Shown: positions 31,435-31,594 of the stretch, in pieces
How the letters are laid out: each line of letters starts with the position of its first letter
Numbering within the stretch: the first letter of the stretch is position 1
From: Deinococcales bacterium
Lineage (GTDB): Bacteria > Deinococcota > Deinococci > Deinococcales > JAAFIG01
Length of the DNA: 35,838 nucleotides
Assembly: GCA_043778225.1 (NCBI GenBank)
Contig: JAYWGM010000026.1
Span: 1-35,838 of the forward strand
Direction: 5' to 3'
Translations under genes and position numbers: made by a program
Notes under the pieces: generated by a model
Database searches by the model: none
What the model was told of the DNA's origin: nothing
The model's input: only the letters and a program-made list of their open reading frames with translations

Positions 31435-31594
31435 TGAAGCTGCTTCAATATCGTCCTTCCTTGCAAAGCGAACTCGTAATTTAGACGGTTCAGGCAGCCG
31501 TTCGGACTCGGTTGAAGCGAAGTTCAGTACAACAGTCTCGCTTACGGACGACCTCGAAGGTCTAGGTGCGATAGGACTTGTTGTACTGACTCCA
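31435..31594 (-). ncRNA. IS110 bridge RNA (target-binding loop plus donor-binding loop); ends approximate
   Basis: Stem TCAGTACAACA/TGTTGTACTGA encloses left target guide ATCGCACCT and right target guide CCGTAAG. Stem GCTTCAA..GTCC/GGAC..TTGAAGC encloses left donor guide ACGGCTGC and right donor guide TTTGCAAG. The guides match the flanks and element ends. Confidence 0.85.

Follow-up and report, generated by a model that had tools for sequence, protein, structure and literature searches.

An element at 30448..31610 on the minus strand (1,163 bp, one CT core counted) is almost certainly an IS621-type IS110 insertion sequence with a guide-bearing bridge RNA. It lies in the window, by which we mean the whole 35,838-nt stretch of a Deinococcales contig analysed here. 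Most IS110 elements are predicted to encode a bridge RNA, and thousands of these have been mined. The element is genuine, its decoding was right, and it is an ordinary member of the IS621-like bridge recombinases; its chief interest lies in the split donor guide of its relatives. To judge from sequence, it adds a compact and naturally insertion-biased orthologue from the Deinococcales.

Architecture of the element and its bridge RNA

The pre-insertion site is uninterrupted on four other contigs, with exact matches of 40 + 42 nt (C101), 25 + 27 nt (C39 and C85), and 20 + 22 nt (C86). Because these empty copies exist, both element ends are fixed at the CT core, and the exact empty alleles place insertion at a 2-nt CT common to donor and target, without a longer duplication (Table 1). 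The left end is 186 nt long and holds the bridge RNA; the right end, from stop codon to core, is 8 nt. This arrangement excludes membership of the IS1111 group, in which, according to PMC11208160, the bridge RNA lies in the right end and subterminal inverted repeats of 7 to 17 bp are present.

The recombinase scored over the cut-off for both Pfam DEDD_Tnp_IS110 (PF01548) and Transposase_20 (PF02371). It matched two sequences with solved structures, IS621 (E about 1e-37) and ISCro4 (E about 1e-39), and no other solved relatives; the nearest named relatives are Deinococcales MAGs (67 to 90% identity). The assembly contains one copy, and the depth of its contig resembles that of the flanks in two DNA runs (10.8 versus 12.6 to 12.8 and 27.5 versus 26.8 to 28.4); neither the copy number nor these depths give any sign of present spread. 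A circle junction was absent among the joints listed in contigs of four DNA runs, although such contigs drop rare variants. Judged on its ORF, ends, and guides, the element seems fairly described as probably intact, as the initial annotation had it.

Table 1. Features of the IS110 element and of the host repeat around it, in window coordinates
Feature	Position	Strand	Basis or remark
Left CT core	31609..31610	-	Sequence and empty alleles
Right CT core	30446..30447	-	Sequence and empty alleles
Recombinase ORF	30456..31424	-	322 aa; D10/E54/D96/D99 and S235 in place, aligned to IS621
Ribosome-binding site AAGGAGG	31429..31435	-	Sequence
Bridge RNA, folded span	31442-31593	-	Roughly 152 nt
Target-binding loop module	31519..31593	-	Long stem, internal loop, short hairpin 31550-31562; folds
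Left target guide ATCGCACCT	31564..31572	-	Flank match limited to GCAC + CT
Left target flank GATGCAC	31611..31617	-	Sequence
Right target guide CCGTAAG	31541..31547	-	7/7 complementary to flank
Right target flank TACGG	30441..30445	-	Sequence
Target-loop handshake CG	31539..31540	-	Complementary to donor positions 7 and 6 (one pair a wobble) rather than to target
Donor-binding loop module	31442..31518	-	Fold
Left donor guide ACGGCTGC	31494..31501	-	8/8 versus joined ends
Left donor ACGGCTG	30448..30454	-	Sequence
Right donor guide TTTGCAAG	31460..31467	-	6 Watson-Crick pairs and 2 wobbles
Right donor TGTAAG	31603..31608	-	Sequence
Donor-loop handshake GA	31458..31459	-	G pairs with target position 7
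Predicted -35 box TTGACT	30461..30466	-	Within last recombinase codons; conserved in relatives; inferred
Predicted -10 box TAAGTT	31601..31606	-	Invariant in 17/17 aligned left ends; inferred
Three left halves of nested host repeat	31609..31676	-	Family D1
Three right halves of nested host repeat	30398..30445	-	Family D2
Unoccupied target 11-mer in neighbouring repeat copy	31744..31754	-	Sequence

The bridge RNA region has a folding z of -3.73, and an Rfam search over 30200-32000 returned nothing at E up to 1. The initial annotation had put all four guides in the right places and with the right letters, and the IS621-like two-loop, four-guide layout is present. The RNA span that it gave, 31435..31594, marked the right locus, but the folded structure stops at 31442 rather than 31435. 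The proposal of a compact RNA with no 5' hairpin was borne out: the target-loop stem motif lies 21 to 22 nt from the core in 21/21 left ends, which leaves no room for the 5' stem-loop of IS621.

In 20,000 dinucleotide shuffles of the left end, no sequence reproduced the four guides in order, taking a match of 6 nt for the left target, 7 nt for the right target, 8 nt for the left donor, and 8 nt, wobbles allowed, for the right donor. Single guides arose in 536 (left target), 286 (right target), 30 (left donor), and 1,748 (right donor) of the 20,000. In this copy the left target guide reads ATCGCAC against a GATGCAC flank, matching at four of seven non-core positions and mismatched at positions 1 to 3. 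Pairing of TCGC with GCGA across the loop had been offered as a possible cause of this relaxed match, and it does appear in the copy's own minimum-energy fold; yet only 4 of 21 relatives form all four pairs while a poor guide 5' end is common among them, so the explanation fails. Compared with 19 of 21 relatives, this copy has 9 extra nt in the inner hairpin of the donor loop (31469-31492).

Covariation of guides, flanks, and stems among relatives

Genome and metagenome scans yielded 43 loci for examination, 39 with a left end (L044, L050, and L075 lack it), representing 21 distinct sequences. Among the 13 distinct elements with a right flank, 12 have a right target guide complementary to their own five non-core flank bases; L059, the sole failure, is mismatched at two positions. 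Permuting guides against flanks gave a mean of 2.4 matches and at least the observed number in 0 of 200,000 trials, figures that are overstated because the relatives are kin. At the level of distinct right-guide types, 6/6 agree with their flanks, as does 1 of 720 orderings. The six types recur in separate starred clades of a tree. Four of its rows are short and non-homologous tails give it four long branches, and the starred clades alone were used. The bridge RNA reading and the guide assignments thus held, both against the shuffles and in the covariation of right target guide and flank, and the relatives supply a clean natural retargeting series in which six right-guide types track six repeat variants.

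The left target guide is conserved in its core-proximal part. Positions 4 to 7 match the flank in 19 to 20 of the 20 relatives with enough flank, and the guide's GCAC is invariant; position 2 matches in 14 of 20 versus 7.1 when permuted, and positions 1 and 3 match in 11 and 7 of 20, not above chance. A covariance check on homologous left ends, which had been suggested at the outset and was run here, found that the target-loop stems covary. Over 16 of the 21 target loops (rows with nested inserts and near-duplicates were left out), 6 of 16 pairs changed on both sides, 98.8% of stem cells were paired compared with 16 to 66% in slid controls, and 26 cells changed on both sides compared with 8.0 after shuffling.

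The outer stem of the donor loop has three pairs with double changes among six uninterrupted sequences. The donor sequence is invariant within the close clade. In four more distant elements (L008, L015, L017, and L022) the donor guide and the right end both read ACAGTTG; three others lack an end, and L003 has no clear donor guide match. The right donor guide position facing donor base 13 is mismatched in 11 of 21 relatives, and the full 8-nt pairing is therefore particular to some members. The first target-loop handshake base is C, and the donor-loop handshake is GA, in 21/21.

A dispersed host repeat as target and as insert

The target 11-mer, GCACCTTACGG, occurs 14 times in the genome versus 1.3 to 1.4 expected, always in a dispersed repeat; no genome site matches the entire left target guide. 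What the initial annotation had overlooked is that this target forms the middle of a 39-nt host repeat, dispersed through the genome, in one of its subfamilies. A strict pattern found 46 simple units, 41 of them exactly 39 nt, and none in the reversed genome; the TACGG centre selected by the right guide is present in 9 of the 46. A looser parse gave 97 arrays, some of them nested: 17 begin with two or more left halves (LLRR, LLLRR, and similar) and open at the central GCACC/T. The element occupies the innermost of three nested copies. The repeat presumably resembles the small dispersed repeats of cyanobacteria and the palindromic elements of Rickettsia; a literature search for nested small repeats found nothing on point.

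Several further observations concern the repeat and its surroundings. The outer stem of its hairpin covaries, and the repeat nests in itself at the central CT and also sits in the loops of other palindromes; in 5 of 46 cases it lies inside a long ORF, always in frame. A 32-nt imperfect inverted repeat (30344-30375 and 31779-31810) encloses the repeat cluster and the element, and similar blocks occur at many contig ends, which suggests a larger composite repeat or MITE. A REP transposase was sought for the repeat. The sole PF01797 match in the genome (L043, G000:C28:84074-84427) was rejected, since we read it as an IS200/IS605-type Y1 gene followed by a tnpB-like frame, and repeat arrays flank none of 30 Y1 and 20 NF047646 loci from the family. 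The best NF047646 score in this genome, which is 89% complete, was 35 bits, below the cut-off of 80; that gene (L121, G000:C32, about 27200-27900, minus strand) is tyrosine-transposase-like, with one 39-nt repeat just upstream.

Genome G002 contains a sister element (L060, L069, L074, and L076-L078) whose six left ends are all identical and uninterrupted; the repeat sites that they occupy have four different left flanks of 12 nt. It is a recently active sister and the better candidate for assay.

Host repeats also enter the bridge RNA itself. Of the 21 distinct bridge RNAs, 16 have a repeat inserted in the left donor guide, always at the bond that corresponds to the junction of 31497 and 31496 in this copy; this copy is one of five that are uninterrupted. 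The carriers are L073, L066, L065, L072, L068, L067, L062, L047-L049, L053, L054, L056, L058, L059, L064, and L071. The inserts are 37 to 40 nt long, with tandem or nested forms of 78, 78, 114, and 185 nt, and comprise several repeat types (five by our grouping), two of which appear in separate clades. After insertion the core-side remnant of the guide keeps 5 of 8 bases, mirroring the short left target match, and the 5' remnant keeps 6 or 7 of 8. One repeat type has eight matches in genomes G012, G013, and G016, all eight inside the left donor guide. The elements with it carry four different right target guides, and G013 has two copies at different sites. An uninterrupted donor loop was not found in these three assemblies (six pattern matches; 84 to 88% complete). 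Together these findings suggest that this insert variant has been passed on through changes of target, with movement continuing while the insert was in place. Published work on this clade, or on bridge RNAs with a repeat in them, did not turn up in a literature search.

These findings raise the tentative possibility that left guides need about five core-proximal bases, so that the donor loop works when split by the element's own target repeat, which adds a hairpin as cargo, is inherited through retargeting, and spreads between genomes, this copy being the uninterrupted scaffold. If so, a bridge RNA would tolerate a large hairpin inside a guide, and donor recognition would rest on fewer bases than the IS621 rules imply, with a bearing on off-target donor-like insertion and on the addition of aptamers. 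Against function of the split guide, repeats also land often in transposase ORFs (matched in 6 of the 14 complete bodies), the ORFs of several carriers are broken, and free copies of the guide-confined repeat type exist in other family genomes. Unassembled intact copies could also act in trans, because each loop is contributed by a separate RNA molecule (PMC11208158).

Two side observations concern inserts elsewhere in the elements. L038 and L039 carry 36-nt repeat copies inside the transposase gene, and in L038 the 12-residue in-frame insertion leaves the frame open. In L075 a left-flank repeat runs directly into the GCACCT that belongs to the left target guide; the start of the element has been deleted between the target half and the guide copy.

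The guide-like words could instead be chance matches or leftovers of repeat DNA, with targeting by the protein or the repeat hairpin alone. Single short matches are indeed common in shuffles, and repeats do land inside these elements, but the ordered layout never arose by shuffling, the target-loop stems covary, and in 12 of 13 elements the guide varies with its flank, which effectively refutes this account. It is improbable, if less so, that the 39-nt repeat is itself mobilized by the IS110 recombinase. Such an activity would explain why nested arrays open at the same CT, and no REP-associated tyrosine transposase exceeds its family cut-off in the genome; nonetheless, the repeat ends are unlike the donor guides, and repeats occur in many settings that have nothing to do with the target guide. 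Cutting at CT is also described for REP transposases (PMC8266576), and the weakly scoring REP-transposase-like gene on C32 adjoins a repeat copy.

A rather more serious alternative, still unlikely in our estimation, accepts the bridge RNA locus as genuine and holds that this copy has decayed and become weak or immobile, either because its left target guide has drifted at the 5' end or because its donor hairpin is longer. Its left match of 4/7 with no fully matching genome site, its single copy despite 14 empty 11-mer targets, its flank-like depth in two DNA runs, and the six copies of the G002 sister all point that way. Yet the ORF and catalytic residues are intact, the six-copy element is itself mismatched at positions 1 to 3 at several of its sites, and ISPpu10 tolerates distal left-guide mismatches (10.64898/2026.03.19.712850).

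Proposed mechanism and comparison with known systems

We favor an IS621-like pathway. The predicted -35 and -10 boxes take the arrangement TTGACT-17-TAAGTT only once the ends join in a circle, so excision at CT would create a putative junction promoter, the counterpart of that in IS621 (PMC11208160 and PMC11208158). The roughly 152-nt RNA would start directly at the target-loop stem. By analogy with IS621, recombinase dimers would bind each loop, the donor loop pairing with the joined element ends and the target loop with GCAC-CT-TACGG, mainly through the 7-nt right guide and the 6-nt core-proximal left match. Top strands would be cut after CT, and the handshake bases would favor exchange in the direction of insertion, with intergenic repeat arrays as the landing place. 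The first handshake bases of this clade, C and G, would pair with the incoming strand after exchange, a setting that favors insertion (PMC11208158 and PMC13626964). The ends, target, guides, covariation, and catalytic residues of this scheme were observed here; for transcription, binding, and chemistry it relies on work with IS621 (PMC11208160 and PMC13626964).

The element probably works like IS621 and has each family feature testable here except the dispensable 5' hairpin. It shares with IS621 and ISCro4 (IS622) a DEDD and Tnp serine recombinase, a CT core, a left-end bridge RNA, and two loops with four guides and handshakes. The IS621 RNA, in contrast, is 177 nt with a 5' stem-loop, compared with about 152 nt and none here; deleting that stem-loop lowers activity slightly (PMC11208158). 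The natural right target guide is 7 nt here versus 4 nt in IS621, and PMC11208160 reports guides longer than 4 nt in IS621 orthologues and a preference of IS621 for a full left target guide match. Right donor pairing is a continuous 8 nt here and a discontinuous 9 in IS621; the 8-nt right end with its predicted -35 inside the ORF, the target, and the donor also differ. In IS621 the inner hairpin of the donor loop makes contact with the recombinase. Elements with near-identical donors stand in a published alignment (PMC11208160), the clade's donor-guide word had no matches in the searched part of supplementary file 4 of that paper, and the element may have been listed earlier. Two further papers are cited for comparison (10.64898/2026.08.31.748434; 10.1101/2025.05.14.653916).

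REP/BIME sequences with TnpA-REP resemble the target repeat in being short, palindromic, dispersed, and clustered, with C/T edges, but the 39-mer lacks the GTAG motif, is constant in length (41/46 simple units), nests in itself, and was found to flank no transposase gene. IS110 insertion into palindromic repeats has been described already, reportedly in a second study besides the one cited next. For ISPpu9 and ISPpu10 of Pseudomonas putida the insertion point is likewise a single bond in a palindromic, dispersed repeat, often clustered (PMC12288879). Their host phylum and repeat differ from those here, where no associated small-RNA MITE was seen. ISPpu10 also combines a left guide that is relaxed in its distal part with a strict right one, and its target hairpin adds specificity (10.64898/2026.03.19.712850); by analogy, the hairpin of the 39-nt repeat may add target specificity as well.
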